Assembly (NCBI GenBank): GCA_011523635.1
Contig: WTGI01000077.1
Coordinates: forward strand, 1,006 to 65,005
Length of the DNA stretch: 64,000 nucleotides
Origin: Acidimicrobiia bacterium
GTDB taxonomy: Bacteria; Actinomycetota; Acidimicrobiia; Spongiisociales; Spongiisociaceae
Reading direction: 5' to 3'
In this document: positions 2,913 to 22,286 of the stretch, piece by piece
How the letters are laid out: every line of letters begins with the position of its first letter
How positions within the stretch are numbered: position 1 is the stretch's first letter
Translations under genes and position numbers: made by a program
The notes under the pieces: model-generated
Database searches by the model: none
Seen by the model: the letters and a program-made list of their open reading frames with translations, nothing else
Told to the model about the DNA's origin: nothing

Positions 2913-2987
2913 GCTAACTAACTCCCCTCGGCTGAGGGGTCGTCGGACCGAAAACAAGACCCCCGTTTCAGCGAAGGAGGCTGAATC

Positions 2988-3269
2988 ATGGTACCAGACA
3001 ACAAGCCGCAGACCATTGACGTGGAGGACCACAAGACGGTCACCATCGTCGTGGAAGGCATCCCCCACCAGTGGCCCGAGGAGTACATCACCTATGCGCA
3101 GGTGGTCACCCTCGAAGTGCCTGACTACGCCCAGCACCCGGAGATCACCTACACGGTGATCTACAAGGGAGGCCCCCGCAACAAGCCCGAAGGCACCCTC
3201 TCCAAGGGTGGCACCGTCAAGGTCGTCGAAGGAATGGTCTTCAATGTTTCAGAAACTGGCCAGTCATAA
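2988..3269 (+). CDS. multiubiquitin-domain (beta-grasp Ubl) protein
   Basis: 93 aa. ...ITYTVIYKGGPRNKPEGTLSKGGTVKVVEGMVFNVSETGQS resembles the multiubiquitin family seen in prokaryotic E1/E2 operons. Confidence 0.6.
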   Translation: MVPDNKPQTIDVEDHKTVTIVVEGIPHQWPEEYITYAQVVTLEVPDYAQHPEITYTVIYKGGPRNKPEGTLSKGGTVKVVEGMVFNVSETGQS

Positions 3270-4828: not shown

Positions 4829-5099
4829 AGCCCAGTAACCGGTTCGGAACAGGGCACGAGGGAGACCGAACCTGACAGATGAGCTACCGGGTACGGGAAG
4901 TGCAGTACGCACTGTCGCCCAAGGTCCTGCGGAGCATGCTCAAGCCCACGCCGGAACCCGCCCTACGAGCGCCTTGCTGCCACTACACCACCACCCTGCA
5001 GCACGGTAACGCACCTCGCCTTGGATGTGCCAGGCCCGGACGCCTCAACTGAATTGCAAATCACGTTCAGGCCATCAGCTACGCAGTGATGGTCGCCGC

Positions 5100-8000
5100 T
5101 CAGGTAGCGGCTAGGTCACGGATTTGTTGGACGATCCTGAAGAACTCGTCGAGGTCGGGCTTGGCGAAGATGGTTTCGGGGCCCTCGGGCGCGACGCTGG
5201 TGAATGGGGACTCGTAGATACGGCCGGGTTGGATGGTGCCGTGTTCGGTGAGGTAGTCGATGACCAGGCTGACGAAGTTGATTTGGTTGACGCTGTAGCG
5301 CTTGTCGTTGAGGAATCTGGCAAACACCCGTTTGGCGGCGGTGCGGTCGAGGCCGACAAGGGAGCGGACGAAGAGTCCGAAGCTGCCGGCACGCATGGTG
5401 GCTTCGGCGAAGGTGTCCGTATCGCCGATGCCAGCCGCGACAAGCACCCGCTGAAGGTCCTGCATGTCGGCTGCTGTGATCGGATGACCGTTGCGGACCT
5501 TGGCGACGATGTCATTGGCGAAGTGGTCTTTGAGGAATCGCTCGGCCTTTTTCTTGAATTGCTCGAAGTCGTGGCTACCAACGCTTCCGCCGATGCCTGG
5601 GAGTTCGATCTCGGTGCCTTCGCCCATCGAGTCTGTGAAATCCGAGTACAGGGGCGTCTTGTGGACGGTTTCGACAAGCTGGACAAGGTTCCGTAGGCGC
5701 TTGCGGGCATCTTCGAGCATGGGATACGTGACGTCGATCCACCACTCGTCGGTTTGGATGTCGATGATCAGTTCTAGCTGCGTGGCGACGGCGGGGATTG
5801 CCGTTCCAAGGTCTTCGAGCGCTGATGCCATGTTGATGATGCGCTTACGTTGTCGCTCGAACGGTTCGTGGCGAAGCAGGCCTAGCTGAGCATTGAGCAT
5901 GAGGACGTCGAAGCGCTTGGCCTCCTCGTTGTCGGGGTCGAGTTGATCGGGGAGCTTCGCAATCCGGTTGTTGAGATCTGCCAGGTCTTGCAGGGTGAGC
6001 GTGTCCCATGCCTCTTGGGTACGGAACCGCTCGACCAGTTCGAGATGGGGACGCACGAGAAAGTTGTACTCGTTCATCGATGCCACAGTCTCACGCAGCG
6101 TGGTGGCGATGTCGGATCGATCGTCGGCGAGAGCCTCGATGCCATCCAGGGCTTGCAGGAGTTCGACGCGGGCAGTGAACAGGATCTCGCTCAGCGGGGC
6201 CGCGCTCTTTGGATCTGCCACAGGGAGCGGCTGGCTGAAGTACTCAAGGTTGCTGCAGAAGTCGAACACGTTGAATGATGTCTTGTCGTCGCCTGGGCCG
6301 AACAGGTCCTTGCAGAGGCGGGTACCACGGCCGAGCATCTGCCAGAACTTGGTCTTGGACCTGACCATCTTGAAGAAGACAAGGTTGACGACCTCGGGTA
6401 CGTCGATGCCGGTATCGAGCATGTCAACGCTGATCGCGATGTGTGGTGCCTTGTCTCTGTTGGAGAAGTCGTCGATCAGGCTCTGTGCGTAGTTGACCTG
6501 GTGGGTGATCACCCGGGCGAAGTTGCCAGCGTCGAGCGCCGGGTAGTTGATGTCGAAACGTTCCTTGATGTAGTCGGCGTGGCGCTGGTTCTTGGCGAAG
6601 ATAATTGTCTTCCCCAGCCGGTCACCACCTGCCACCGTCACGCCTTCGGTCATGAGGTATTTCAGAACCTGGTCGACGGTGTCCTCGTTGAATAGCCACT
6701 TGTTGAGCTCGGCGGCGTTGACCTCATCTGGCGGCTCGATCGGGATGCCGTCATCATCCACGCCCCACTCGAGCTCGTCCCACTCGGCTTTCTCGTCTTC
6801 GGACAGGTCGCCGTAGCGGATGCCCTCGCGCACGAACTTCAGCGGTACCGATACTCCTCGGGGTGGGACAAGGTACCCGTCCCGGATCGCATCATCGAGC
6901 GAGTAGGCGTCGGTTGGTACTCCTGTCTCCAGATCAAACAGGTCATAGGTGTTCTTGTCGACCTCGTCCTTAGGGGTGGCAGTCAGTCCCACCAACAGCG
7001 AGTCGAAGTAGTCGAAGATGCCCCGGTACTTTCGATATACCGACCGGTGCGCTTCGTCGATCACCACCAGATCGAAATGCCCGACACCGAACCGGCGGGT
7101 GCCGTCAGACCGGTACTCATCGATCTTGCCGACCATCGTCTGGTACGTAGACACGTACACCCGTCCGTCTTCGGCGCCTTCACTGACCAGGTTCACGGGC
7201 GCCGAGTCCGGCAAGTGGGTCTTGAACGCGTTGACCGCCTGATTCACCAACGCAGTGCGATCCGCCAAGAACAGCACACGCTTCACCCAACCAGCCCGCA
7301 TCAACAGATCCACAAGGGCAATCACAGTGCGGGTCTTACCAGCGCCTGTGGCCATCACCACCAGTGCCTTACGCTGCTTGTCAACCTCGAAGTGCTCGGC
7401 AACCGCCTGGATCGCTCGCTGTTGATAGTGGCGGTCTACGATCCCCTCGCTGACATCCAAAGATGACAGTGACAACTGGCTATTCCGTCGCTGGATCAGC
7501 AGCGCCAACTCGTCGGCCGTGCAGTAGCCCTGCACCCTTCGAGCCGGATACCTCGTGTCGTCCCACAGCCAATGCTCATACCCGTTGCTGTAGAAAACGA
7601 CCGGGCGCTGTCCCGTCTCAGCCTCTAGGCAATTCGCGTACAGTTTGGCTTGCTGTTGGCCAGCCTGAGGGGCGACCGAAGTCTTCTTCGCCTCCACCAC
7701 GGCCAATGGCAACCCATCGTCGCCCCACAGCACATAGTCGACGTAGCCAACCCCCGAGACCGAAGGCATCCCCCGTACCTCGTATTCGATCTCGCATCCG
7801 TCATCAGGGTCGGCCCAGCCCGCCTCGCCTAGCAGAGCGTCTATCTTGTACCGGCGCGTTTCTGCCTCGGACCAGTCGTGCGCCCCGATCGGAATGGACT
7901 CGGCTGCCTTCTTCGCCGCCGCTACCTCAGCCCTCAACTCCCCTAACTGTGCAGCGAGCCCTTCGGCCGTTTGGTGAGGCTCCGCCAACCCATGACGGGC

Positions 8001-8510
8001 CCGCAAGCCGTTCGCGACATCCCGTCCCAGACGTTCCTCAAGATCTTGACGGGCCTTCAGTGAAGGCTTCGCTTGCCCGCCATCGCCTCGGAGAAGGCCC
8101 GGGTCGAAATGCGCCAGAGGATCGGGTTTTGTTGATCGGCCATAGGTGAAGGCCAACCACAGACAGAACTGGAACAACGCAGACACCACCTCCACAGCGT
8201 CCAGCCTCGACGGCGGCCTCGCCTTCTGCACCGCACGATCACCCGCGCGCTGAATCTTCCGAGCCCAACCGAAGACCCGACCACCGGCTAACGCCTTGAA
8301 TGCAGGTTCATTGATGCAGGCATCCAGATGATCCTCATACGGATCCGGAAGCCCACGGTCATACCGGTACATCCACCTGACACCCGACTCCAAACACTTC
8401 CTCGCATAGACCACCGCCGAGCCTGGATCCGACAACACGAGACGCTCTGCCCAACACGCCAGCCCAAACTCGACCGAGAAGTCCTCTTCGAGGAACGAGA
8501 ACTGGCTCAC
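5100..8510 (-). CDS. hsdR: Type I restriction enzyme R subunit
   Basis: SF2 helicase motifs VVMATGAGKT and DEAH-box (VVIDEAHRS). 1136 aa. 4-nt overlap with hsdS. Confidence 0.9.
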   Translation of the reverse strand: MSQFSFLEEDFSVEFGLACWAERLVLSDPGSAVVYARKCLESGVRWMYRYDRGLPDPYEDHLDACINEPAFKALAGGRVFGWARKIQRAGDRAVQKARPPSRLDAVEVVSALFQFCLWLAFTYGRSTKPDPLAHFDPGLLRGDGGQAKPSLKARQDLEERLGRDVANGLRARHGLAEPHQTAEGLAAQLGELRAEVAAAKKAAESIPIGAHDWSEAETRRYKIDALLGEAGWADPDDGCEIEYEVRGMPSVSGVGYVDYVLWGDDGLPLAVVEAKKTSVAPQAGQQQAKLYANCLEAETGQRPVVFYSNGYEHWLWDDTRYPARRVQGYCTADELALLIQRRNSQLSLSSLDVSEGIVDRHYQQRAIQAVAEHFEVDKQRKALVVMATGAGKTRTVIALVDLLMRAGWVKRVLFLADRTALVNQAVNAFKTHLPDSAPVNLVSEGAEDGRVYVSTYQTMVGKIDEYRSDGTRRFGVGHFDLVVIDEAHRSVYRKYRGIFDYFDSLLVGLTATPKDEVDKNTYDLFDLETGVPTDAYSLDDAIRDGYLVPPRGVSVPLKFVREGIRYGDLSEDEKAEWDELEWGVDDDGIPIEPPDEVNAAELNKWLFNEDTVDQVLKYLMTEGVTVAGGDRLGKTIIFAKNQRHADYIKERFDINYPALDAGNFARVITHQVNYAQSLIDDFSNRDKAPHIAISVDMLDTGIDVPEVVNLVFFKMVRSKTKFWQMLGRGTRLCKDLFGPGDDKTSFNVFDFCSNLEYFSQPLPVADPKSAAPLSEILFTARVELLQALDGIEALADDRSDIATTLRETVASMNEYNFLVRPHLELVERFRTQEAWDTLTLQDLADLNNRIAKLPDQLDPDNEEAKRFDVLMLNAQLGLLRHEPFERQRKRIINMASALEDLGTAIPAVATQLELIIDIQTDEWWIDVTYPMLEDARKRLRNLVQLVETVHKTPLYSDFTDSMGEGTEIELPGIGGSVGSHDFEQFKKKAERFLKDHFANDIVAKVRNGHPITAADMQDLQRVLVAAGIGDTDTFAEATMRAGSFGLFVRSLVGLDRTAAKRVFARFLNDKRYSVNQINFVSLVIDYLTEHGTIQPGRIYESPFTSVAPEGPETIFAKPDLDEFFRIVQQIRDLAAT

Positions 8511-9667
8511 AACTCACCCTGGAACGCACGCTGCTGTAGCGAAGCGAACAGCCTGTCGCATCGCCGGGATGAGCGATTGAGGACATCTCGCTGCCGCGCG
8601 ATCATCCTCAAGTAAGACTCGAACTGTCGCTGAAGCTTGAGCGCAGGAATCGGGATCTTGATTTCCTTGAGGATTGCTTGGTTAATCTTGTGTGTCCCGT
8701 TGGTAGTTCGCGCAGCACTCTCGATCTGACGACGAACGATTGGCGTATTCCAGACTCGACTAAGAAAGTCTCGCGAAATCAACTCAGAATCACACCGAGC
8801 AGCGATCATCGTATCAGGAAAGGCGACATCGGGGAGACTTTGTTGTGGATACTTCCCTCGCCCAACCAGAAACAGATTTCCGTTGCCACGACAAATGAGA
8901 AACAGGTCTGCTGAAACTGTCTGCTGCACGACATGAGGCCTAACAAAAGTGCTGTTCTTGACTGCATCTGGATCAAAGGACAAACCAGTAATGGCTGAAA
9001 GGGTTAGTACTCGTCCTGGGAATTCACCTGACGTTGATGGTGACACTCCATTACGCAGTGGTTTCGTCATTAATGTCTCAAACCTTACTTGTCTAAGCGT
9101 CGTTAGATTATCGAACAGGTCGGCAAACACGGCTTCGACGAATCTGTCGAGCTTGGCGAGGGCCTGGCGGCGCTTCGCTCGAAGCGCCTCAGCCGCGTCT
9201 AACACCGCTGCGATACGCCGCTGCTCCTCTAACGCCGGCAAGGAGATAGGAATGTCGGCGACGTACGATGGCCTGGCGCGAAGCAATGATCCTCCGACCC
9301 CTGCGACGGTCTGGATAAAGGCATGATGAAATCGATCGGACACCAGTACATAGCGCAAGTACGCAGGATCGAAGCGATCACTCCGGAAGATGATCCATTC
9401 GCTCGACCCGATGGCCGGCCGATCAGAGCCCAGCTCTACAACCCATGCGCGTCGAATGTGCGGGACAATCTTTGAGAGGAGGACGTCACCGCTCTCAAGC
9501 ACCTGTTTACGGGAGCCGACTTCCCTGCCACTAACGAGCTCGGGCACCTTGGCATCGAATGCTGGGATGCTGAAGAGTTCGAACTCATCATCGGGATTCT
9601 TGCGTGGATCGATGGAACGCGTTCTTGTTGACATCAGTTCACCAAGCGGTACGCTTGCGAAAGTCAT
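8507..9667 (-). CDS. hsdS: Type I RM specificity subunit with two target recognition domains
   Basis: Duplicated TRD architecture with conserved spacer helices (LPALEEQRRIAAVLD ... IPIPALKLQRQFESYL). Overlaps hsdM and hsdR by 4 nt each. Confidence 0.8.
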   Translation of the reverse strand: MTFASVPLGELMSTRTRSIDPRKNPDDEFELFSIPAFDAKVPELVSGREVGSRKQVLESGDVLLSKIVPHIRRAWVVELGSDRPAIGSSEWIIFRSDRFDPAYLRYVLVSDRFHHAFIQTVAGVGGSLLRARPSYVADIPISLPALEEQRRIAAVLDAAEALRAKRRQALAKLDRFVEAVFADLFDNLTTLRQVRFETLMTKPLRNGVSPSTSGEFPGRVLTLSAITGLSFDPDAVKNSTFVRPHVVQQTVSADLFLICRGNGNLFLVGRGKYPQQSLPDVAFPDTMIAARCDSELISRDFLSRVWNTPIVRRQIESAARTTNGTHKINQAILKEIKIPIPALKLQRQFESYLRMIARQRDVLNRSSRRCDRLFASLQQRAFQGEL

Positions 9668-11232
9668 GCCAACATTGCCTTAAGTTCGTCGACGCCTCTT
9701 AGGATTTCTGTCTCCAGGGCTGTGAGTTCGTCGAGGATCTGGGTTGGCGGTGGGTATTCGATTTCGTTGTAGATGATTTCTTTGTAGCGGTTGATGCTGA
9801 GGTCGTAGGCGTTGCTCACGATGTCGGACTTGGGTATGCAGAAGGACTGCTCGGTGCGGACACGTGACATCTCCGTAGTGGTGCGTTTCTGCCAGCGGGC
9901 GAGAACGTCGGGTAGGTTGTTCTTCTCATGCTCTTCATCGGTCAGCTCCCCCTCCGTGAGTACGCCGAGTTTGGCCTCGTCAAGTAGCGGGATGCGCTTG
10001 TCGTCGAGGCTGTAGCCGTCAGCCTCCAAGTCATAAAACCAGACATGGTCGGTGCCGCCAGAGTTGGTCTTGGTGAACAGCAGGATGGCGGTAGAGACCC
10101 CGGCGTAGGGTTTGAACACGCCGGATGGGAGCGAGACGATGCCCTCGAGCTTCTGGTCTTCAACCAGAATACGGCGAAGCTCTTTGTGAGCCTTGGTCGA
10201 GCCGAAGAGTATCCCATCGGGCACAATCACCGCCGCTCTTCCACCGGGTTTGAGGAGTCGCAAGAACAGTGTGAGAAACAGCAGTTCGGTCTTCTTGGTC
10301 TTGACGACCTTCAGGAGGTCCTTCGCTGTGCTCTCGTAGTCGAGCGAGCCTGCGAAGGGCGGGTTGGCCAGGATCAGGCTGTAGGACTCCGTGCCTCCGG
10401 CGTGGTCCTGGGCTAGGGAGTCCCGGTAGCTGATGTTGGGGTTCTGGACTCCGTGGAGCTGCATGTTCATCGACCCGATCCGGAGCATCGTGTTGTCGAA
10501 GTCATAGCCGGTGAACATCGTGCTGTGGAAATGTCGTGCCTTGACTGGGTCGGTCAACGCGATCGGATGTCGGTCACGGATGTGTTCGCCAGCCGCTACT
10601 AGGAACCCGCACGTCCCGCTTGCGGGATCGCAGATAGTGTCGTCTGGTTGGGGGGCGACCATTTCGACCATCAGCCGGATGATGTGGCGCGGGGTACGGA
10701 ACTGGCCGTTTTGCCCGGCTCTGGCGATCTTGGAGAGCATGTACTCGTAGACGTCACCCTTTGTGTCGCGGTCTGTCATCGGGATCGAGTCGAGACCGTC
10801 CACTGCCTTCTGCAGCAGCCCAGGGGTGGGGATCGTGAGACGGGCACCGCGCATGTGTTTGGCGTGAGTGCTCTCCTCCGCCCGCTGGTGCAGGAACGGG
10901 AAGACGTATCTCTCGACTACCTCGAACATGTCGGCCGCGGACATGTGCTTGAACCTCGACCAGCGAAGGTCACTGTACGGTCGGCCGTTGATGAGCCCTT
11001 CAGGCAGGAATTGTTGGCCCTTAGGGAAGATGACCACATCGATCGGCTGGCCGGTTCGGTTCGCTTTGTTCTCGGCGAGTGTCTGGCGTTCGTCGAGGGC
11101 CTTGATGAACAGCAGATAGGTGAGTTGCTCTATCACCTCGAGCGGGTTGGATATGCCACCCGACCAGAAGCTGTGCCAGACAGCGTCGATCTTGTTTCTG
11201 ACCTCACCGGTGAGCATTGGTTCCCACTTCAT
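9664..11232 (-). CDS. hsdM: Type I RM N6-adenine DNA methyltransferase
   Basis: HsdM N-terminal domain, motif I (DPASGTCGFL) and motif IV (NPPF in LILANPPFAGS). Confidence 0.9.
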   Translation of the reverse strand: MKWEPMLTGEVRNKIDAVWHSFWSGGISNPLEVIEQLTYLLFIKALDERQTLAENKANRTGQPIDVVIFPKGQQFLPEGLINGRPYSDLRWSRFKHMSAADMFEVVERYVFPFLHQRAEESTHAKHMRGARLTIPTPGLLQKAVDGLDSIPMTDRDTKGDVYEYMLSKIARAGQNGQFRTPRHIIRLMVEMVAPQPDDTICDPASGTCGFLVAAGEHIRDRHPIALTDPVKARHFHSTMFTGYDFDNTMLRIGSMNMQLHGVQNPNISYRDSLAQDHAGGTESYSLILANPPFAGSLDYESTAKDLLKVVKTKKTELLFLTLFLRLLKPGGRAAVIVPDGILFGSTKAHKELRRILVEDQKLEGIVSLPSGVFKPYAGVSTAILLFTKTNSGGTDHVWFYDLEADGYSLDDKRIPLLDEAKLGVLTEGELTDEEHEKNNLPDVLARWQKRTTTEMSRVRTEQSFCIPKSDIVSNAYDLSINRYKEIIYNEIEYPPPTQILDELTALETEILRGVDELKAMLA

Positions 11233-13432
11233 TCTCCGTTTCGATCATCGCGTTCCTCAAACTGAGGATGCCGGCCACGAGGCCTTCGCGGACCGTATCG
11301 TAGGTGGTGCGGCAAGCTTCGAGTGTCTCGTCGAATTGGGACATCTGCGTCTCGATAGCGGTCAGACAGGCGACGAGGGCTTTCTGTTCTTCGAGGGCTG
11401 GCAGGTGAACTTCGATGTCTTTGAGCGTGTCATGCCTTAGGTTGGCGATGACACTTCCTGTGGCAGCTCCTGCGAGGGCTGCTCTCCCCCGCCTGGATGT
11501 CAGATACAGCCTCAGGTAGTCAGGATCCAAGCGTCTCTGGTCAGGTCGGAGTCTGATCAGCCAGTTCGAGAACGATGCAGGAACATCGAATCTGACTATG
11601 GCGCACGCTACAGATCTGTGGCCATCGATCCCACGCGTCACAAGTAGGAGATCCCCTCGTCGGACCATCCGACCTCGAACATGGCCGAACGTGGACTCAG
11701 CAGGAACGTTGGCCAGGATCGGCTGTCCCTGGATAACCATTCCGGTTGTGACGTACGGCGTCGGATCGCCTTCGCCGCCTTCACGTTGCCGTATGCCAGG
11801 CAACGGATCAGTGATCAACAAGTCACCCAGGCGGTGATGCGAGAAACTTGGGCCATCCACCGGGTCGATTGCCGAGAGTTGCTGCCGGATCGTAGCCTCA
11901 ACTGTCGGGAGAGCCGCCAGACGCTCCTTGACGGTCGTTGTGAGACGTTTCTGCCGGGACCGGATCGGCTCACCGTTGATCTCCGTGATCTTCACCGCGT
12001 ACTGGATGTAGCGACTAGGGCCCAGTGCGCTGCCGTTTGCAACAATCTCGTCGGTGGTGCCGATGCCGCTGAACTGAGCTTCGGGTTCCAGCCGTCCGTC
12101 ACGCCACCGCTGTATCGTCCGTCCGATCTTGACTATCTCGGGTGGCTGGAAGCTACGCACTCCCCCTCTCTCGGGCGTTCCGAGTTGACGAGCATCGAGA
12201 AACAGAACCCTCCCGGCACGATTCACTCGGTCCTTCTGCAGAACCAAGATCGCAGTGGGTATAGACACCGACGTGAGCATCCCCGGCGGGAGGTAGAGGA
12301 CAGCATCCACGTAGTCGGCCTCTAACAGTCCCGTCCGGATTATGACCTCGGAGCGGCCACGTCTCGTCAAAGCGGTGGTCGGGAGCACAACAACTCCGAT
12401 ACCGGAGTCGGCGAGGTGGAACACAACGTGCTGAACCCAAGCAAGGTCAGCGTGCCCCTTCGGAGGTAACCCTAAGAACCACCGGGGATCACCGTCCATC
12501 TGCTCGACCGAGGCGAGACGGAGACCGAACGGAGGTTCGACAGCGATGCGGTCGGCTCTCAACTGCCAGAGACGATCATCGACCATCGTGTCACCGGTCA
12601 CGAGCTGGAAGGACGCGCCCTGCAACAGCAGGTGGAGGAACCCGAGCCTCCAGGTCTGCTCCCTGATCTCTTGACCATAGAGTTGGGTCACCGTATCCGA
12701 ATAGCGTTCCCATGTCGATCCCAGGAAGACAGCTCTGCCACAAGCTGGGTCGTAGACAGTTCCCTCAAGAGGTTCGAGCAAGGCTGTCATGATGTCGACA
12801 AGGCTTGGCCCACTATCGACGTTGCCCGCCTTAGCCCCACGACGCTTGGCGAAGTCTTCGAGGAGGACTGTTGAGGCATCCCCCCAGTCGGTTGAGCGGG
12901 GGTGGAAGTGACCAACAGTTTCGATCAGTCGAGTCCAGTCTGAAGGCCGCAACTGGCTCACAACAGACGACACCCTCAGCGCCCTAGCGAGGTCGGGGTC
13001 CGACATGGTCAGAGCGTCGGCGGTCGAGGAATACACCAGTCCGGGGTCGTTTGCTGCTTCGATCCGGCCCCAGGCACGTGCGAGCGGAGTCAGACGCTCG
13101 TATCGACCGGAAGCTGCCGCGCGCAGGGCGAATAGTTGCAGCAGGACCTCCGGAGTGTCGAACACACCGGGGAGATCGCGCACTGCATACGTAGCCTGTA
13201 ACACCGCACTCTCGATCGAGTCCTGTTCTGGAAGGTGGACACTCTTGCCCGCGGCTCGAAGCCACGCCACGATCTGAGCCCGGTCGAAGAGTCCTTCCTC
13301 AGCTTCTGTCGGGAAGTCCGGGTGGCGACGCTTCCAGTTCGACACCGCAGACGGTCTAACCCCAGCGAGTCTTGCGATCTCGGCACCTGTGATCAGGATC
13401 GGAGTTGATGGGTTTGTATCTGGGACCGTCAT
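11204..13432 (-). CDS. HTH + gamma-class N6-adenine MTase + TRD fusion protein (second, non-canonical M/S polypeptide)
   Basis: N-terminal HTH (ILITGAEIARLAGVRPSAVSNWKRRHPDFP). Motif I (YDPACGRAVFLG) and motif IV (VEPPFG). C-terminal HsdS-like TRD with LPALEEQKALV helix. First gene body of the operon after the NYN gene. Confidence 0.75.
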   Translation of the reverse strand: MTVPDTNPSTPILITGAEIARLAGVRPSAVSNWKRRHPDFPTEAEEGLFDRAQIVAWLRAAGKSVHLPEQDSIESAVLQATYAVRDLPGVFDTPEVLLQLFALRAAASGRYERLTPLARAWGRIEAANDPGLVYSSTADALTMSDPDLARALRVSSVVSQLRPSDWTRLIETVGHFHPRSTDWGDASTVLLEDFAKRRGAKAGNVDSGPSLVDIMTALLEPLEGTVYDPACGRAVFLGSTWERYSDTVTQLYGQEIREQTWRLGFLHLLLQGASFQLVTGDTMVDDRLWQLRADRIAVEPPFGLRLASVEQMDGDPRWFLGLPPKGHADLAWVQHVVFHLADSGIGVVVLPTTALTRRGRSEVIIRTGLLEADYVDAVLYLPPGMLTSVSIPTAILVLQKDRVNRAGRVLFLDARQLGTPERGGVRSFQPPEIVKIGRTIQRWRDGRLEPEAQFSGIGTTDEIVANGSALGPSRYIQYAVKITEINGEPIRSRQKRLTTTVKERLAALPTVEATIRQQLSAIDPVDGPSFSHHRLGDLLITDPLPGIRQREGGEGDPTPYVTTGMVIQGQPILANVPAESTFGHVRGRMVRRGDLLLVTRGIDGHRSVACAIVRFDVPASFSNWLIRLRPDQRRLDPDYLRLYLTSRRGRAALAGAATGSVIANLRHDTLKDIEVHLPALEEQKALVACLTAIETQMSQFDETLEACRTTYDTVREGLVAGILSLRNAMIETENEVGTNAHR

Positions 13433-14049
13433 GCCGCCACCTCCGGGGGTGCAAGATTGGGTAGGAGCCGCACGAACGTAGCGGCATTCGCAAGTCCACT
13501 CGAGAGGCTTCGCCCGCGTGATACCACCCCGACAGGCAGCCCGTGCGATCGGAATCTCGTGACCATCTCTTCGAAGATGCCGTCGCCCGATCCGATAATG
13601 ATTTGGTCATACCGTTCAGCTATGAAGCGGTCATCGTTCACCCAAGCCAGCAACGCAAGATCGGCTCCGTCCGGACCTCGACCTGACAGGACCCTGGGCG
13701 ATGGCCATGCGGCTTTGGTGATGGGGAGAAGTGCCGGATTGACAGCAACCACCACGTGATCTCCGTCGACCACCGAGGCTCCAGCCTTATAGAGGGCAAT
13801 GGCCTGGAGGAGCATGTGAGTACCCGTCCACGGACCACCCATCAGGTTCTCCAGGTCGACCAGATGCAGGGTCCGACCGGGGGGAACGTGCTGGGCCCGA
13901 GGGAAACGTCGCGGCGAAACCGCGTATAGGTGCGCGTAGCGCCGCCGCACGTCTCGGCTGTGAACAGTGCCTCTGAGTGGTTTGTGACTTAGAGTCATAA
14001 GGTTGACACTAGCGGGTCGCCCCACCGCTGTCAAGTGACTTCCATTCAC
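13429..14049 (-). CDS. NYN/LabA-like (PIN-fold) domain protein
   Basis: LHLVDLENL...GGP and ...QIIIGSGDGIFEEMV match the NYN acidic-residue pattern. 4-nt overlap with the MTase-TRD gene. Start is GTG 14049 or ATG 13998. Confidence 0.55.
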   Translation of the reverse strand: MNGSHLTAVGRPASVNLMTLSHKPLRGTVHSRDVRRRYAHLYAVSPRRFPRAQHVPPGRTLHLVDLENLMGGPWTGTHMLLQAIALYKAGASVVDGDHVVVAVNPALLPITKAAWPSPRVLSGRGPDGADLALLAWVNDDRFIAERYDQIIIGSGDGIFEEMVTRFRSHGLPVGVVSRGRSLSSGLANAATFVRLLPNLAPPEVAA

Positions 14050-14104
14050 ACTTCACCAGAACGGAAGACCGTCTCTCCAAATGGTCGCCCATAGCATCAT
14101 CGAA

Positions 14105-14152
14105 GCTGTGGGCCCGGCAGGACTCGAACCTGCACCCAACGGATTATGAGTC
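14105..14152. repeat. Direct repeat of the 3' end of tRNA-Met (att-site duplication)
   Basis: 14109-14152 tgggcccggcaggactcgaacctgcacccaacggattatgagtc matches 21306-21349 (1 mismatch) plus shared gctg flank, same orientation. Partner is the full tRNA at 21306-21379. Confidence 0.7.
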
Positions 14153-14818
14153 GGCATAAAACCCCAGCTAAAGTATAGTTTTCAGGTCAGTCCCATTCGA
14201 CTGACCCACAGGACACTAGGCATGGGCGGAGCCTTTCCCAGCAGAAACGCCAAGGCGCCCTCGGACTCCGCCCAGCCCGTCACATCCAGCCCCATAGTGG
14301 CACCCGGTGCTGGCGGCCGGCCTCATCCGCTCGCCGAGAATCGCGCACAACGGTGTCAAGGTCGACTTCGGCCCAGACCGCTCCGATCACCTCCCTGAGC
14401 GAACCGCTGTGACTATGGCGAACGATACGGCGAAGTACAGCTTCCGATGGACCGTTGATTGTCGGATCTGCTCTGGGCCATACGGAGACGTTGGGGATTT
14501 CCATAGCAAGCTCGGAGGTGTCCTGGCTCCCCGTTGTTTCGGCAGCGCGGTCAACGCGTCGCCTGCTTGGTTGTCGCGGCGGTATCCTGGGCGACGGCTA
14601 TTCCATGACGGCCGCGATAAGTGGCTGTACTCGTTTGGCTGTCGCCGGGCTGCTGTTCCTCGGGGCGAGGTGCGGTGGCAGTCGCAGATGAGTACCGACG
14701 TTTCCTGACTCGGAGGGCTGGGCTCGCTCTGTGCCTGAAGGCCGGCCAACCGGAATCGTGCTGGAGCACATCGCCATTCCTTGTGACTGATCGGCTCGAT
14801 GACAGATGGCCGTTGGCG

Positions 14819-17752
14819 ATGGCCGTTGGCGTGGATGCTTGCAGAACCGGGAGATACCGTGCCGTGACGAAGTCCGATTCGAAGCAACGTGGCAACATCG
14901 GCACGAGCGCAGTGTCCCTCAAATTCGAACGAGATCTCTTCTGGGGGACCGCGGACAATTCGCGAGATGATCGAGGCATCGACTTCTTTGCGCTGGCTCG
15001 TGACTCGTTGCTGGGCATGCGAGAGATTCCAATCGGGATTCAAGTCAAGACGGGCAAGTCGAGATTCGACAGAGCCAAGCGGCAAGCTGACGGCGACATC
15101 GAGGGCTGGTGGTACGAATCGAGCAAGCAACGCTTCAAGTACTGGGAGGAGTACGGCGTACCCGTACTGCTCGTTCTCCACAACGAGGACGACGATGTCT
15201 CGTTCTGGGTCCACGTTACACAGGACGCGTATGAGTCGACAGGCACGCGTGCCAAGATCCTGGTACCGCGACGTCAGACCATAAGCAAGCTTTGCAAAGA
15301 TCAGCTGCTCCGCATCGCCGACCGACATAGCGCGTCTCTGGCGCTCGAGGGAACAGTCCTCGCGGACAGCCTCGAAGGAGTCCCATCCGAGCGCCGAATG
15401 CGGTACGCGCTCGTCGTCCCCAGATTCATAGCGCCGCCCCCGCACGTGGCCAGAGAGCGCCCGATCGACGCGTGCGAAGCAGTCGCGCTTCTTGCCCAGG
15501 GCGACCTCCGCGTATTGGATGAGATTGTCGACAAGCACGACGAGGTGCCCAGGCCTGAGTCCCTTAACGCAGATGCAAGTTGGGATTGGCAGTTCACCGC
15601 CGCGATCTGGGATTGGTTGGTAAGCCAATCGATAGACAAGCTGAAGAACATCTACGAAACTGCCCCCGAGGGTCACAGCGCGGCTGCGAGTGGTGTGCTG
15701 CTTGCCTGCGCTTTGGGCCGTCGAGAACGCCACGAAGACGCCGTCGCGGTCCTCTATGGACTCATCCGGCGCGGCGATCCTGACGCCCTCGACCGCGCAT
15801 GGGTCCTCGCACAGCGCGCCCGGTGGCACGCTGACCTCGGCAACTTCGATGCCGCCCAATCCGACGCTGCCGATGCGCGCCGATTGCTCGACGGCGTTCA
15901 CAACGACGCCCTAGTCTCCGCGCCCATGGTCTCGGCGCTCCTCGCATCAGCCACACGGACGATGAACGTCATAGCCGCGACGAGGCGCTTTCGAGACCGT
16001 TCCTCGGATGCTGAGTCCACCGACCTGTGGATTGCTGAGCAACAAAAGGCCTACCTTGAACTGTTGAAGGCATCTGACACCACCGTCTCATGGTGGCGCG
16101 CCAGGAACGTTGCCTCAGCATTGGGGCGAGCGCAAGACGCCAACTTCGAGTCATGGGTAGAGGACAACCCACCGCAATACGTAGGCGGAAGTCCAATGCC
16201 AGAAACGAAGCTCTTGGCCGCCGAGTTCAACGCCGACATCACGGGTGAGCATGGGTCCTGGCGAACACTCTCAGCCCGCCGCGGAGTTCAGAACCTCTTA
16301 CGTGCTGCGTCCTTACCCGATACAGCAAGGGAGTTAGGAGAAGGCCTCGACACCGTGCGACGCAGTGGCGACTCGAACCGCTTCACCAAGGCAACTCACC
16401 ACCTACTCAGAACCGGTCCACTAGCGGCCGTTGCTGCCTCGGTCCGGAAGGTCCCCACAGCGGGATGGACCCACACAACAGCGAAGACGAACTTCGACGC
16501 CCTAGCACTAGCAGGGGATCTCATCGACCAATCCGTTGCTGACCAACTGCTCGAACAGTGCGCCCGCGCGGCGTGCGGAGAAACGACAGCGCTTGGCTGC
16601 ATACAAGACGACGGGTACTTCAGCCTTCCCGCGTTTGCTACGGAAGCAGCAGCTGGTGTACTCCCAGCCGCGTCCGCCAGCTCGCACGACAGCTTCACCG
16701 GTTACCTAGCCAAGCTACCGGAAGTCGAGCCAGGCTTCTTCCTTCGTGGTCTTGAACGAGCGCTGTCGTTCTTGGACTACACGCAAATCGGTCAGGAGAA
16801 TCGACGAGGGTTGCTCGCGCTCTCTGAACGAGGACATGCCCAGCTAAGTGCCGCCGTATGGGGCTGGTTCGCGAGTCACGGTGACTCTGCTGCTATACGT
16901 TCGCTCATACGAGCTGCTGCGCAGGGCGACATCTACGCACTCGCCGAAATCGAGGACCCGTCGGTATTCAATGAGTCCGAGAGTGCCGCGCTCATGGACA
17001 CTCTTGCGCAACGTGTAGATCAGGCTCACGCTGACGCCCTCACTGGTGCGGGCAGCAGCTGGAACAGTGCGTTCTGTCATGCGCTCACTCGACTGAATCT
17101 CACGATCCCCAGCAGTGCCCGTTGGGAACCGGTGATCACCCTTCTCGGCGAACCGCGCTCCTTCGTCGAAGACAAGGCCGCTATCTGTAGAGCCCTGGGC
17201 ACCGACGCTCAACAAATACCGGAGGACGTGCGCGATCAACTCGCCGCTCTCGTCGACGTCGCAGCATCGGCGTCGGCCTCGTTCTGGCCAGGTGCAGAAG
17301 CAGCGGGAATCGAGATCAGGCTCAAGATCGCTTTGGCACTAGTCGACGAGAGCGAAACCGACAGAGCCCTTGTTCGACTCGCACTGGGCTCACATCAGGA
17401 ACGTCGAGACGCCTGCTTGATACTACGATCGTCAGCTTGTGCCAGTCGTCGACTGTTACTGGAGTTCCTGTATCGGGACGCCAACTTCACTGTGCGCTAT
17501 CAGGCCGCCCAGACAGTCGCCCACCTTGTTGCCACCGAAGCGAGCGATGCCGACATTGACCTCGCGTGGAAGGTGGTCCGCGACGACGGGCGCCACCTAC
17601 CGATTGCCCTCCTTCAGGGGTTCGCGGCGGCTCCAGGTGTTCCCGCACCGATCGCCCAAGAAATCAGTAACTCCTTTGAGCATCACCCCTCCGCAATAGT
17701 TCGGCACCACGCCGCACAACTTCAGCAACTCTCCTCCGCCGAGCCCCATTAG
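14819..17752 (+). CDS. DUF4365 (PD-(D/E)xK-like) N-terminal domain fused to long alpha-helical HEAT/TPR-like region
   Basis: N-terminus ...GNIGTSAVSLKFERDLFWG...DDRGIDFFAL...IGIQVKTGKSRFD...YWEEYGVPVLLVLHN matches the DUF4365 pattern. Rest is ~800 aa of Ala/Leu-rich helical repeat. Alternative upstream start 14621. Confidence 0.6.
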   Translation: MAVGVDACRTGRYRAVTKSDSKQRGNIGTSAVSLKFERDLFWGTADNSRDDRGIDFFALARDSLLGMREIPIGIQVKTGKSRFDRAKRQADGDIEGWWYESSKQRFKYWEEYGVPVLLVLHNEDDDVSFWVHVTQDAYESTGTRAKILVPRRQTISKLCKDQLLRIADRHSASLALEGTVLADSLEGVPSERRMRYALVVPRFIAPPPHVARERPIDACEAVALLAQGDLRVLDEIVDKHDEVPRPESLNADASWDWQFTAAIWDWLVSQSIDKLKNIYETAPEGHSAAASGVLLACALGRRERHEDAVAVLYGLIRRGDPDALDRAWVLAQRARWHADLGNFDAAQSDAADARRLLDGVHNDALVSAPMVSALLASATRTMNVIAATRRFRDRSSDAESTDLWIAEQQKAYLELLKASDTTVSWWRARNVASALGRAQDANFESWVEDNPPQYVGGSPMPETKLLAAEFNADITGEHGSWRTLSARRGVQNLLRAASLPDTARELGEGLDTVRRSGDSNRFTKATHHLLRTGPLAAVAASVRKVPTAGWTHTTAKTNFDALALAGDLIDQSVADQLLEQCARAACGETTALGCIQDDGYFSLPAFATEAAAGVLPAASASSHDSFTGYLAKLPEVEPGFFLRGLERALSFLDYTQIGQENRRGLLALSERGHAQLSAAVWGWFASHGDSAAIRSLIRAAAQGDIYALAEIEDPSVFNESESAALMDTLAQRVDQAHADALTGAGSSWNSAFCHALTRLNLTIPSSARWEPVITLLGEPRSFVEDKAAICRALGTDAQQIPEDVRDQLAALVDVAASASASFWPGAEAAGIEIRLKIALALVDESETDRALVRLALGSHQERRDACLILRSSACASRRLLLEFLYRDANFTVRYQAAQTVAHLVATEASDADIDLAWKVVRDDGRHLPIALLQGFAAAPGVPAPIAQEISNSFEHHPSAIVRHHAAQLQQLSSAEPH

Positions 17753-17871
17753 GTGGAGCTGGGCCCCTGATCTCCATCTTGCGGTCAACGGTTCTGGTCC
17801 ACCTTGACGGCTCGTGAACCGGTCCAATGCCGACCCGACAATCTGTCTGCGACAACGTGTAGACCGTCAAT

Positions 17872-18759
17872 GTGGAGGCTGGAAATGCACGGGCCGGCCT
17901 AGGCGCTCCTTCCAGTCACCGCAACGCAGGGTCGCGCATCTCATCCGGGTACTTCCCAGACGTGATGCTCTGCCGTGGTTCCGTCCTCTCAAGGTCCGGA
18001 GCCTGTGTAGTCCTCGGTGGGCTCACCGAGGACGTTCGCCCACACCTGCGAAACGCGAGCGCGATCCTGCATGGGTATATTTGCTCGGTGGCTTCGACGG
18101 ATGAGTTCACCGCATTGCGCCGCAGAGTGATGCGGCGATGCGTATACGCCCTGAATGCCTTGGCGTTGCGCGATGATCGGGTGCCCCGTGACGGTGCATT
18201 CGATGCAGCAGCGGCGAATGCACTTGCAGCCATTGTCGCTTACATGGCTAGCGGGCGTGAGTACAAGAGCAATGGCAGTTGGGTTCAACCGCCGACGGCG
18301 TTACTGGCAATTGTCAGGCGAGAACCTGAGATCAAGACGGATACTCTAAACAATTCTGAATTGCATACGCTGGGGGAGGGAATAGAGAAGGCCAAGTTGA
18401 TCCGGCATGGTCGAGCTGACGAAGAGTGGGATGTGCTGAATAAGAGACATGTTGATGCGTTGATTTCACTAGATCAACATCCTGCTCTTCAGGTCTTGGA
18501 GATCGTCGATGGACTGGACTTTACACAAGCAGCCGTCGAACTCTACAGGACGGAAACTGAGGAGCTAATGCCATTCAGCCCTAAGGAACGCTCAATGGTA
18601 CCTGAGCCTTCAGAATGCGACTACTGCGGACGCATGACTCTTATCACCGAGGGATCCGATGTGTTCGGCTTCGATCCAGGCGAGGGAACCTGCATCGCCT
18701 GCGGTAGAGAAAGAACCTATGACGACACGGTTCACGACTACGCCTGGAGGGTGCGATAA
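17872..18759 (+). CDS. hypothetical protein with C-terminal CxxC...CxxC zinc ribbon
   Basis: CDYCGRMT...CIACGRE at the C-terminus. Co-directional with neighbours. No recognisable family. Confidence 0.4.
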   Translation: MEAGNARAGLGAPSSHRNAGSRISSGYFPDVMLCRGSVLSRSGACVVLGGLTEDVRPHLRNASAILHGYICSVASTDEFTALRRRVMRRCVYALNALALRDDRVPRDGAFDAAAANALAAIVAYMASGREYKSNGSWVQPPTALLAIVRREPEIKTDTLNNSELHTLGEGIEKAKLIRHGRADEEWDVLNKRHVDALISLDQHPALQVLEIVDGLDFTQAAVELYRTETEELMPFSPKERSMVPEPSECDYCGRMTLITEGSDVFGFDPGEGTCIACGRERTYDDTVHDYAWRVR

Positions 18760-18933
18760 CTACTTACATCGCTGCCCATTGGGCTGCCCATCGCTGATGT
18801 CCAGTCAAGTGCACCGGCTCAAGCCGTGGCTAACGTGGCCCGCTGCCGTGCCCCAAGTTCAAATGCGTCCTACGACAGACCACAACCAAGCATTTTGAGG
18901 CTGCGTGAGGCCGACCCGTCTTGGTGATCTCCA

Positions 18934-20139
18934 ATGTCAAGTTGGGGGCTGTCTTGCTGTATCGGCCGCCGGGGCCGACCACTTTCGGGGGAGCACCCCG
19001 AGAGCCAGACGGAGGAGGCAAAAGAGCCTCACCCGATCGATGACGAGCCGAAACCGTGCTTCTACCAGTCACAGCGGACCCAGATCCCCACCGGCGAGCA
19101 CCCTTCCGCGACCTCGTGTTGCGGCGGGAGGGTATGTCATAGCCGTGTCGCCATGTCCAAAGACTGCGTGGTCCATGCCTACGACGAACAACTTCAATCC
19201 CTTCTTGAGACAGCCCTCGATCAGCATCCGGAAGTGCTCGCCCTTCGTAGACGGTTCGACATCGCCGGCAAACAACTCAAGAACCACATCCGATGCGTGG
19301 CCCTATCCCAGAGCGCCCGAAGGTACCTGTTCAGCGCCGTGGACGAGGCATGGTGCATCGACCCAGAAGGAAGGGGAATCTGGGCGCTTCGATTCCCAGC
19401 CAAGGAACCACAACCACAGCACACCCACAACATCCACATCGGAACCAGCAAGGAAGTCGAACAGGCTCTGGACATCATGGACCTCACCATGCCCTTCACG
19501 CCGAAGGACCTGAAACGGCGTTACCGCGAACTCGCTAAACACCACCATCCCGATCGCAACCCGCACAATCCCCGCTCCGCAGAAGCTATGGCAGCCATCA
19601 ACCACGCCGCCGAGATCCTCACTGGGGCGGATGCCGCCGCGCTGGAACACGGCATCACCATCACGATCGGGATCCAGTTCGGAGCAAGCGAACAATTCGC
19701 CTCTGACTGGATCTACGCGGCCAGCTTCGCCGCAGGATCCGACGCGGCCTACCTCGCCAGCTACTCCGGCCGGGTGGTACTAGTAGACCAAAACGGGAAA
19801 GGCCAGCGGGTCTACGACATCGGAAGCGTCCCCACCCAGATCATTGACACGGGTGACTACCTCTACCTCCTGACCGGCACCAGACTGTACGTGCTGCGAA
19901 ACAACGCACTGTGCGCACTGGTAGATACCTACGAGAAAGGTACACTCGTCGCCGCCCAGACCGGCTTCGGACTCCTCCAAAACAAACGATTCCGCTGGTA
20001 CCGCGAAGACGGCCGCTACCTCGGCACCGTCCTCACCAAAGCCCCAATCCGCCATGTCCACTCCAACGGAGACACCATGACAGTGGAAACCCGCCAACGA
20101 CGAGCAACCATACGCGGAGTACCCGCATGGTGGGGCTAA
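18934..20139 (+). CDS. J-domain (DnaJ-like) protein with unrelated N- and C-terminal regions
   Basis: Internal J domain DLKRRYRELAKHHHPDRNPHNPRSAEAMAAINHAAEIL (HPD motif). No CXXCXGXG repeats, unlike the bona fide dnaJ at 38363. Start uncertain. Confidence 0.55.
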   Translation: MSSWGLSCCIGRRGRPLSGEHPESQTEEAKEPHPIDDEPKPCFYQSQRTQIPTGEHPSATSCCGGRVCHSRVAMSKDCVVHAYDEQLQSLLETALDQHPEVLALRRRFDIAGKQLKNHIRCVALSQSARRYLFSAVDEAWCIDPEGRGIWALRFPAKEPQPQHTHNIHIGTSKEVEQALDIMDLTMPFTPKDLKRRYRELAKHHHPDRNPHNPRSAEAMAAINHAAEILTGADAAALEHGITITIGIQFGASEQFASDWIYAASFAAGSDAAYLASYSGRVVLVDQNGKGQRVYDIGSVPTQIIDTGDYLYLLTGTRLYVLRNNALCALVDTYEKGTLVAAQTGFGLLQNKRFRWYREDGRYLGTVLTKAPIRHVHSNGDTMTVETRQRRATIRGVPAWWG

Positions 20140-20191
20140 GCCCATCTACCGACACTGCTCGCGGGCATTCCGTCAGCCGTGCGTCCGCCGT

Positions 20192-21109
20192 GTGTCAGCA
20201 AGGTCGAAGCACTACTCACCCTGGGTGGGCGAACGTCTGTTTGCTACACTAGCGAGACCTGCCGATATCTTTGTGAGGTTCCGGATGACGGCCTTCTTGA
20301 ACGCTGAAGCTGATACTGACCCCGCTCACGCTTCGCCCCGTCATGGACGCCCCGTCGCGCTCGCCGACCCTGCCCTTGCCCTGAACATGGTGACCGAGTT
20401 CCTCGATGCGGCTAGTTGCAGTACGAGCGCATACCACAAGGGCATGTACGACGAACACATGCGACACGAAGCGCGGATGCGACGCTTGTTGCCGCTGCTT
20501 CGGGAAATTGCTGAGCGAGTACATCCGAGCGTCGTCGCAGACCTAATAGAACCCAACCGGGTGTTTTACGACGAGTCTGGTGACCCGGCATGGCATTGGG
20601 GGCCAACCGAACGAGCGACCGAGACACTCGCTGGTGTCCTAGAACACCAAGATGTCTATGAGAAGATATTCGGAAACTCTGGCCCGTCGCTTGCCGCCAG
20701 TGGTCTTCACAAGTGGGTTTGGGACGCCGCGAAGGGTCGATGGGATGCCGGTTACTACGGAGACGCAGTGCATGCAGCCGCCGAAGTCATCAGCCAGAAG
20801 ACCAAAGTGAAGCTCGGTAGGCGGGATATCACGGGAACTGGCCTATACAGCAGTGCCTTTTCCCTTGACCCGCCTAAACCCGGCGAGCCGAGGCTGCGCT
20901 TCGCTTCTGTAGACGAGCAAGACCAAAGTACTTGGAGGTCTGTCCATCAAGGAGCGATGCATCTGGGAATGGCCTGCTCCCTGGGAATTCGTAACCGCCA
21001 AGCCCACAAGACGGCGAACCGACTCACTGAACAGGAAGCACTTGAGCAGCTCGCAGCATTGAGCGTCTTGGCCCGCTGGGTGGAGAAGGCCGTACTGGAG
21101 AGCCCGTAG
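20192..21109 (+). CDS. HEPN-superfamily protein (TIGR02391 hypoth_ymh-like), Rx4H motif
   Basis: C-terminal ...GYYGDAVHAAAEVISQKTK...GIRNRQAHK...EQEALEQLAALSVLARWVEKA fits the TIGR02391/HEPN consensus with R-x4-H (RNRQAH). Confidence 0.6.
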   Translation: MSARSKHYSPWVGERLFATLARPADIFVRFRMTAFLNAEADTDPAHASPRHGRPVALADPALALNMVTEFLDAASCSTSAYHKGMYDEHMRHEARMRRLLPLLREIAERVHPSVVADLIEPNRVFYDESGDPAWHWGPTERATETLAGVLEHQDVYEKIFGNSGPSLAASGLHKWVWDAAKGRWDAGYYGDAVHAAAEVISQKTKVKLGRRDITGTGLYSSAFSLDPPKPGEPRLRFASVDEQDQSTWRSVHQGAMHLGMACSLGIRNRQAHKTANRLTEQEALEQLAALSVLARWVEKAVLESP

Positions 21110-21305
21110 TAGAGGTTGATCGAGAAGACTCCGTCAACGCACAGCTCAACATTGCGGCCTCGATGTTGGTCCTTCGGAGCGCTTGGTGACAACCAGTTCG
21201 GACGGGTAGATCCTGCACAATCTGCTGGTGGGCGAGAGCCAGAACCCGCCTCTGACCTTGGAGCTTAAGTAGCTATGAAACAGTTAGCGACTAGTAGAAA
21301 CGCTG

Positions 21306-21379
21306 TGGGCCCGGCAGGACTCGAACCTGCAACCAACGGATTATGAGTCCGCTGCTCTGACCGCTTGAGCTACGGGCCC
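21306..21379 (-). tRNA. tRNA-Met (anticodon CAT), 74 nt, CCA not encoded
   Basis: Cloverleaf folded by hand: acceptor gggcccg/cgggccc, D stem gctc/gagc, anticodon stem gcgga/tccgt with loop ctCATaa, T stem gcagg/cctgc with ttcgagt loop. Confidence 0.9.
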
Positions 21380-21422
21380 TGTAGGGGAAGGATAATCCCA
21401 GCGCGTGATGACCTGGCGGGGG

Positions 21423-22286
21423 TTAGGGGCGGTAGAACCTGCCGGGGACGCGGGCTATGGCAACGTCGCAGGGGACGGTCCGCATGAGGGCTTCGGCGTT
21501 GCTGCCCAGGAGGACCATGTTGGAGTTGCCGGCGCCGCGGCTGGCGGCCACCACCAGGTCGGCGTTGCTGATGCGGGCGAACTCGGCCACGGTCTGGGGC
21601 GGGGGGCCGTCCAGGACCACCGGCGTGACCAGGCCGCCCCAGCCGGCCACGAACTTCTGCATGCTCTCCTCCAGCAAGGAAAGGCGTTCCCGCCGCAGCA
21701 CGTCGAGCCGTTCGGGCATGACCCCCGCATCCGAGAGCATGGTCTCGTCGTCGGTGGGTAACGACGCCACCGCCGTCACGGTGTCGGCGCCCGTCGCCAG
21801 TAGGAGGGCCAGGTCGACTGCCGAAGTGCTGGCTTCGGAGAGGTCTACGGCCGCTATCGCCCGGCGGTACGGGGAGCGCAGCAGCCTCCGCACGCTGAGC
21901 ACTGAGGCATGCAGCTTGCGGGCCAGCCTGGTGGTGCGGGGGCCGATCCTCGTCTGGTCGACCGAGGAGGTGCCGGTGATCACCAGCCCTGCCTTGTGGG
22001 ACAGCTTGGCCAGTTCGATGGCCATGTTCCCCGACCGGACCTCCAGATCCACCCGGCAGCGGGCGCGAGCATTGATCCAGGTCAACAGGTCCTCCGCCTG
22101 GCTCTGGCGGTACAGGTGGATCCGCTCCAGCATCTCGTCGGGGAGCGGGACGTCGGGCGGTTCCGCGACATGGACCAGCCTGAGTTCGGTCTGGTGGGCC
22201 TCCGCGAGAATCCGGCCTCGATCGGCCACCCGGCGGGACATCGGGGACAGATCGACCGCAGCCAGCACATGCTTCATGTCAGCCAA
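21423..22286 (-). CDS. tandem universal stress protein (UspA) domain protein
   Basis: Two Usp-like halves (HVLAAVDLSPMS... and RAIAAVDLSEAS...) with C-terminal ...VLLGSNAEALMRTVPCDVAIAR. Confidence 0.8.
   Translation of the reverse strand: MADMKHVLAAVDLSPMSRRVADRGRILAEAHQTELRLVHVAEPPDVPLPDEMLERIHLYRQSQAEDLLTWINARARCRVDLEVRSGNMAIELAKLSHKAGLVITGTSSVDQTRIGPRTTRLARKLHASVLSVRRLLRSPYRRAIAAVDLSEASTSAVDLALLLATGADTVTAVASLPTDDETMLSDAGVMPERLDVLRRERLSLLEESMQKFVAGWGGLVTPVVLDGPPPQTVAEFARISNADLVVAASRGAGNSNMVLLGSNAEALMRTVPCDVAIARVPGRFYRP

Follow-up and report, generated by a model that had tools for sequence, protein, structure and literature searches.

The tRNA-Met(CAT) gene in the 64-kb stretch of contig WTGI01000077.1 analyzed here (hereafter, the window) is an integration target, and we found that the locus, a tRNA hotspot, consists of decayed islands arranged in tandem. 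This array covers about 22.5 kb, from position −1210 to position 21304 (negative positions lie to the left of the window, on contig L001, which extends it in that direction). The segment at 14105–21352, which we call island A, very probably represents the tRNA-proximal unit of this tandem array of decayed integrative islands in the tRNA-Met gene. A horizontal origin is indicated by the two copies of the attachment (att) site, by an integrase remnant, by a step in GC-content and by the three different contents observed at this one tRNA among strains.

Two tRNAs were predicted in the window by ARAGORN. One of them is the tRNA-Met(CAT), which is 97% identical to the tRNA located beside the universal stress protein (USP) gene in related strains. 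An earlier note on this DNA, made from the sequence alone, had reported that the 3′ end of the tRNA-Met is repeated with one mismatch. This was confirmed, both in the tRNA call (ARAGORN and Rfam) and in the repeat itself: the 44-nt 3′ part of the tRNA (21306–21349) has a second copy at 14109–14152 with a single mismatch, and no match was found in any of 100 shuffled versions of the window. There are only two full copies in the 64 kb, which argues against the generic dispersed element that the same note had considered as a counter-indication. When extended to 51 nt, the pair is the sole substantial repeat detected by a repeat finder within 13900–21450, and this search revealed no other convincing repeats or transposon ends flanking the cargo genes. 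The two copies point the same way, with the distal one (frag2) located on the 3′ side of the minus-strand tRNA-Met. Since frag2 lies downstream of the tRNA 3′ end in the same orientation, the geometry is the one expected of integration into a tRNA 3′ end. The segment also presents the two hallmarks used by Islander-type searches, i.e., an intact tRNA at one end and a same-orientation direct repeat of its 3′ part at the other. The interpretation of the repeats as attL and attR is supported by their orientation, by the placement of frag2 3′ of the tRNA and by the integrase remnant alongside it. Under the integration model, the 3′ half of the intact tRNA-Met would be the copy supplied by the element.

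A metagenome scan with the adjacent USP protein yielded five contigs of related strains (L010–L014), whose USP is 93–94% identical and whose core DNA is about 88% identical to that of the window. The same tRNA-Met stands beside the USP gene in all five. In L010–L013, a 198-nt spacer separates the tRNA-Met from an intact tyrosine integrase of 381 aa (domains Arm-DNA-bind_3, Phage_int_M and Phage_integrase in the L011 type), behind which lies unrelated cargo. In L014, only the first 30–60 or so codons of the integrase are found beside the tRNA-Met (a stump at 11156–11310 of that contig), followed by an AAA_21/AAA_15 ATPase and a DUF4062 protein. Three different contents (window, L011 and L014 types) therefore occupy the same tRNA, and the uniform gene content among relatives that would have spoken against an island was not observed. 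Homologous integrases in IMG/VR proviruses are commonly located at the contig edge with their 5′ end outward. In the intact relative as in these proviruses, the integrase gene (int) sits at the element edge and its 5′ end faces the att site. The sequences of these strains suggest that int decay by cargo replacement is recurrent at this tRNA.

The absence of an integrase between the repeats, as first reported, holds for intact enzymes: no intact recombinase open reading frame (ORF) was found there using the ORF list, Pfam or a six-frame scan. It does not hold for remnants, and the region 14153–14818, which had been described as non-coding, was found to contain an integrase pseudogene fragment at 14295–14648. 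A search of this region for integrase remnants had been proposed. The Pfam six-frame scan of 14153–14950 gave no integrase signal at E ≤ 10, and the remnant, which escaped Pfam, was revealed only because we compared the region with the integrase of the relative. It aligns to the intact L011 integrase gene with 74% DNA identity over 366 nt (blastn; E = 5e-51; alignment from 14294) and corresponds to codons ~150–271 of the 381-aa protein, with at least two frameshifts and at least two stops. Its protein traces lie in three frame segments: TAKRVQPLIAAVME followed by a stop, GYRRDNQAGDALTALPKQ...FAIVTAVRSGR followed by a stop, and EVIGAVWAEVDL...GRQHRVPL. The box I region (AIVTAVRSG) is retained, and both the arm-binding N-terminus and the C-terminal ~110 residues, which hold the HxxR motif and the tyrosine nucleophile, are missing. 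The remnant is thus homologous to the P4-type integrase family and forms no ORF with HxxR, the tyrosine and an arm-binding domain. No further homologue of the L011-type integrase was found elsewhere in the window or in the adjoining 9.7 kb on the left. This frameshifted internal fragment bears out one of the options initially proposed, that of a decayed island.

The remnant is oriented as a tRNA-adjacent int would be, but it is located 6.6 kb away from the tRNA-Met. Its position at the end far from the tRNA indicates an internal rearrangement, and the 7.2-kb unit is therefore not one clean single element. Read in the direction of the tRNA, the order is tRNA, a 55-nt spacer remnant, four antisense cargo genes, int codons ~150–271 in sense orientation, 139 nt and frag2. 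These 139 nt gave no Pfam or tblastn match and may represent either a scar left by a deletion or the distal arm of the former att site. At the other end, the spacer remnant is homologous to the tRNA–integrase spacer of the relatives, with identities of 41/55 between the window and L011, 37/56 between the window and L014 and 32/49 between L011 and L014. The blastn alignment of the core with the relatives extends as far as 21253, and the ~55 nt that directly follow the tRNA are far more diverged among the strain types than the neighboring core (88–95% identical). The segment 21253–21304 is what survives of the element's proximal arm. When aligned to the spacer, the flanks of frag2 and of a third tRNA fragment (frag3) reach only background scores. 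A spacer that is shared but diverged, together with the differing remains of int, is consistent with a scenario in which related elements sharing one integrase family integrated here repeatedly and the integrase was then lost independently.

The low GC-content does not end at frag2. The GC-content is about 0.60 throughout the part of the window left of the tRNA and steps up to 0.65–0.70 beyond it; outside the window, on the left, it stays low until about −1210, where the low-GC stretch meets an aminotransferase gene, reduced to its 3′ remnant, that neighbors a CocE/NonD-type peptidase gene. By segment, the GC-content is 0.599 in island A (14156–21301), 0.600 in its older neighbor, island B, and 0.606 in the outer 1.2 kb (segment C), versus 0.666 in the left core and 0.658 in the right core. 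A third, degenerate copy of the tRNA-Met 3′ part, frag3, straddles the left edge of the window and marks the outer end of the next island. Outward from the tRNA, the array consists of island A, frag2, island B, frag3, the 1.2-kb remnant (segment C) and the core. We consider it a tandem array because the low GC-content continues past frag2 and because a third tRNA fragment is present at the window edge. The earlier suggestion of tandem islands with a partner repeat further to the left is borne out by frag3 (22/24 identical) and by the extent of the low GC-content. No intact recombinase was found anywhere in the array using ORFs, Pfam and integrase homology searches. Another tRNA-like match, within a hydantoinase gene at −6505, was discarded as a chance match (E = 0.01, opposite orientation).

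We propose the following history for the locus. As the family of the remnant suggests, a P4-type tyrosine integrase would have recombined the tRNA gene with an element-borne attP that included its own version of the tRNA sequence, spanning the anticodon loop through the 3′ end. Integration would have restored the complete tRNA at one junction, moving the previous 3′ part to the far junction, and successive related elements would have stacked the islands outward. The integrase would then have been destroyed, leaving codons ~150–271 at 6.6 kb from the tRNA. In this reading, about 6.6 kb of cargo (the DUF4365, hypothetical, J-domain and Ymh genes) would have taken the place of spacer nucleotides ~56–198 and int codons 1–~150, and a second deletion would have removed int codons 272–381 along with any older cargo up to frag2. 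The outcome would be a relic flanked by att sites and devoid of an integrase, fixed in the population sampled and carrying defense-type cargo. Cargo replacement plus a second deletion appears to be the most economical account of island A.

Several points weigh against this account. The order and number of the rearrangements are inferred, and the remnant beside the distal repeat could also stem from a deleted tandem. The four cargo genes do not form a conserved unit elsewhere, so what we describe as one insertion may be several. Frag3 is short and degenerate (E = 4e-4) and covers the T arm, which is generic to tRNAs; it also matches a sequence specific to this tRNA-Met, the 3′ strand of the acceptor stem. 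The intact element of the relatives was seen without its distal end. Finally, the proposed empty-site comparison revealed variable content at the tRNA-Met and no strictly empty site among the genomes examined, the closest of which hold other islands there or have lost synteny. A search through Dxs found a tRNA-Met near dxs in none of the 21 top loci (best Dxs match 72%, in a metagenome-assembled genome [MAG] of Ca. Spongiisociaceae). The genomes it recovered assign the organism to the Acidimicrobiales and are not syntenic with the window. A search through the peptidase of the left core led to a sister strain with other island content at the left boundary and to an 80% relative without tRNA-Met within 10 kb.

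Two elements rather than one represent a rival scenario that we regard as possible although distinctly less probable. Island A would then consist of a newer integrase-less unit, made of the spacer and the four cargo genes, in tandem with an older element owning the remnant; a deletion would have removed the proximal tRNA fragment, the spacer and the int 5′ end of this older element. The remnant does have the orientation and order that int would show in the next element outward, the locus is clearly one of tandem stacking and DUF4365 homologues move independently of their neighbors. Yet at least three deletions would be needed (the newer int; the inner att site and int 5′ end; the int 3′ end and cargo) versus two events in the model that we prefer, and 14649–14863 contains no trace of an intermediate tRNA fragment.

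That the repeat is not an integration scar at all, and instead reflects a chance match, a dispersed repeat, a partial duplication of the tRNA or an assembly chimera, is scarcely credible. The T-arm sequence is generic among tRNAs, and tRNAs are frequent sites of breaks and misjoins in metagenome assemblies; indeed, some short-read (Logan) contigs end at this repeat, as expected of a 51-nt duplication. These origins are nonetheless refuted by the shuffled sequences and the mere two full copies in the window, by the integrase remnant adjoining the partial copy, by the step in GC-content located exactly at the tRNA and by independent assemblies. All 16 contigs that carry the methyltransferase of island B show the same arrangement of islands A and B, having been assembled by several pipelines from at least eight samples. 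Among the contigs aligned to the window as DNA, one is 99.9% identical and all the others 100%. Such an identical arrangement across samples and pipelines rules out an assembly chimera.

The same contigs bear on residual mobility. Island A retains both attL and attR (51-nt repeats, 96% identical) and has lost its modules, with int present only as a pseudogene and no relaxase or transfer domains detected by Pfam, PADLOC and related profile scans. This is the state of a cis-mobilizable element (CIME), and the segment could still be a cis- or trans-mobilizable CIME-like unit whose att copies are recombined by a related P4-type integrase located elsewhere or on an incoming element. We judge this unlikely, and likewise the excision of island A, alone or along with its neighbor, that would follow from it. 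The near identity of the att copies, the intact anticodon-loop region in both, the ~55 nt of proximal arm that are kept and the intact integrases that target exactly this tRNA in the same lineage all speak for a mobile unit, and CIMEs and mobilization via accretion are documented (PMC5704250, PMC3146451). On the other hand, neither the window nor the 9.7 kb to its left encodes another integrase homologue, and most of the proximal arm (spacer nucleotides 56–198) has been replaced, so that arm-type binding sites may be lost. The segment is also in place in all 16 contigs, none of which presents an excised variant or a junction lacking it. More speculative still is the idea that the 7.2-kb unit, excisable by a P4-type integrase in trans or by that of a newly accreted element, serves as a shuttle of defense genes among sponge-associated Acidimicrobiales; this we hold to be slightly less likely again. 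We know of no CIME-like system described in this phylum and habitat.

Table 1. Features of the tRNA-Met locus, from the tRNA outward (window coordinates).
Feature	Position	Strand	Evidence or description
tRNA-Met(CAT), intact, integration target	21305/6–21379	−	ARAGORN; Rfam RF00005, 74.1 bits
Proximal repeat copy (att core), 51 nt	21302–21352	−	Anticodon stem-loop to discriminator base/3′ end, plus 4 nt of trailer
Spacer remnant next to tRNA-Met, 52–55 nt	21253–21304	−	Homologous to tRNA–integrase spacer of L011 and L014
Cargo 4: Hypoth_Ymh/TIGR02391-family protein, 305 or 274 aa	20192–21109	+	Pfam PF09509, 9e-25
Cargo 3: J domain (DnaJ domain) protein, 401 or 328 aa	18934–20139	+	Pfam DnaJ, 1e-10
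Cargo 2: hypothetical protein, 295 aa (264 aa in other gene calls)	17872–18759	+	ORF list; CxxC...CxxC near C-terminus
Cargo 1: 962 aa, N-terminal DUF4365 restriction-endonuclease-like domain, long helical C-terminal part	14864–17752	+	Pfam DUF4365, 2e-21; PADLOC Aga_REase, 3e-13
Tyrosine integrase (P4-type) pseudogene fragment	14295–14648	−	blastn, tblastn high-scoring segment pairs and six-frame translation versus L011 integrase
Stretch between frag2 and integrase remnant, 139 nt	14156–14294		No Pfam or tblastn match
Distal repeat copy (frag2), displaced tRNA-Met 3′ part	14105–14155	−	49/51 identical to proximal copy (96%), E = 2e-15
Island B, older neighbor	10–14104		GC-content 0.600; no integrase; defense-type genes
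Third degenerate tRNA-Met 3′ fragment (frag3)	−14 to +9, possibly to +40	−	22/24 identical to tRNA positions 49–72, E = 4e-4

The four cargo genes of island A are co-oriented (Table 1). Alternative starts of the first, which encodes the DUF4365 protein, are at 14819 and 14621. The second gave no family match using Pfam, PADLOC and further profile scans. No excisionase, replication or transfer genes are present in island A. In other MAGs of Acidimicrobiales (including Ca. Poriferisodalis), DUF4365 homologues reside in defense islands, as single genes beside type I restriction-modification (RM), Bil, DarTG and toxin–antitoxin genes, and no relatives of the protein were found in IMG/VR. We rejected the possibility that the four cargo genes form one conserved system, as the neighbors differ among the DUF4365 homologues; the four genes may have arrived separately. 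The genes of island A are defense-associated through their context, and none of the four is a validated defense system. The DUF4365 family is small (35 matches), and its named members come from MAGs of Acidimicrobiales and sponge symbionts (relatives in L127, L129 and L130–L132). The protein combines a nuclease-like N-terminus with a helical, HEAT-like region of ~800 aa and received no PADLOC system assignment; its gene is a candidate stand-alone defense gene.

Island B encodes a DUF433/DUF5615 toxin–antitoxin-like pair, a helix-turn-helix (HTH) protein with ImmA/IrrE, the proteins Multi_ubiq, DUF6791-ThiF and BubE, a type I RM system (hsdR, hsdS and hsdM), a methyltransferase–specificity fusion and an NYN-like gene. 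The array as a whole therefore qualifies as a defense island, with type I RM (Pfam and PADLOC), Multi_ubiq/DUF6791-ThiF/BubE and toxin–antitoxin-like pairs. The ubiquitin-like conjugation module spans ~2700–4830, with Multi_ubiq at ~2988–3269, DUF6791-ThiF (a fusion of E2-like and E1 parts) at 3208/3244–4437 and BubE at ~4457–4828, and it is preceded by the HTH and ImmA/IrrE regulator pair (1567–2569). In the relative L129, the equivalent neighborhood holds a Bil-type module. The type I RM operon lies within 5100–13432 (hsdR, 5100–8510; hsdS, 8507–9667; hsdM, 9664–11232). A 742-aa protein (11204–13432) overlaps the end of hsdM and consists of an N6 methyltransferase fused to half a specificity domain; in this composition it resembles a type IIG enzyme or a MADS-like extra component.

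The left boundary of the array differs among strains. The class III aminotransferase gene is intact in the 80% relative (L126, 12073–13407), and the window strain keeps only its last 181 nt (L001, 8338–8518; window −1390 to −1211). In the sister strain L122, a 93-aa remnant (12122–12403) follows the peptidase, where the intact gene of L126 begins; it probably corresponds to the 5′ part of the aminotransferase. These remnants suggest two different ways in which island turnover eroded the core, in each case from the distal side. The sister strain also harbors two Fic-domain genes (8094–9413 and 12863–14050), one in core position and a second, ~89% identical copy within the island, just past the aminotransferase remnant. 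The Fic gene of the window strain is located at 4633–5868 of L001. Elsewhere in the window, the GC-content dips to 0.545 at 35975–37240; the dip surrounds an alpha/beta-hydrolase gene and an intergenic gap of 380 nt and is flanked by a GRDB-like fragment and a DUF3151 gene.

Our results illustrate the turnover of a tRNA integration hotspot in an uncultured lineage of Acidimicrobiales. The strains present an intact integrase, a 5′ stump or a cargo-displaced internal fragment at this site, each with a different set of defense-type genes. In practice, "non-coding" DNA beside an att repeat should be compared with the integrases found in relatives, as the remnant here went unnoticed in the Pfam scan. 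The locus is a tidy case of island decay and accretion, and it leaves the knowledge of genomic islands unchanged.

The unit shares many features with known systems. As in P4-type tRNA islands and prophages, the target is the tRNA 3′ part from the anticodon loop, the direct repeat is ~45–50 nt long and the tRNA is rebuilt; GC-content is deviant, the content is strain-specific and a relative has an intact member of the integrase family at this very tRNA. In contrast to these islands, the integrase is reduced here to a pseudogene of its internal part, shifted to the far end of the unit, and excisionase, replication and transfer genes are lacking. CIMEs have lost integration and transfer genes and kept attL and attR, and they often occur in tandem through accretion (PMC5704250; Guedon et al. 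2017). Like the CIMEs of ICESt1-related elements of Streptococcus thermophilus, island A is att-flanked, has lost its integration genes and lies in tandem with decayed units at the same target; it differs from them in that the window array holds no functional partner, shows no sign of conjugative ancestry and belongs to an uncultured member of the Acidimicrobiales. The ssrA islands of Dehalococcoides form tandem arrays that include integrase-less units (PMC3146451; McMurdie et al. 2011). In both cases, several direct repeats of a small-RNA 3′ end downstream of the intact gene delimit islands, many without an integration module, but the Dehalococcoides islands involve a serine recombinase, a 20-bp repeat and a tmRNA target, whereas a tyrosine integrase, a 51-nt repeat and tRNA-Met are involved here. 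As in defense islands and hotspots, the window array holds type I RM, Multi_ubiq/E1–E2/BubE, toxin–antitoxin-like pairs and a DUF4365 nuclease-like gene. Overall, the unit is a standard tRNA-integrated P4-type island in a decayed state, which is ordinary and matches the definition of a CIME, its mobilization being putative.

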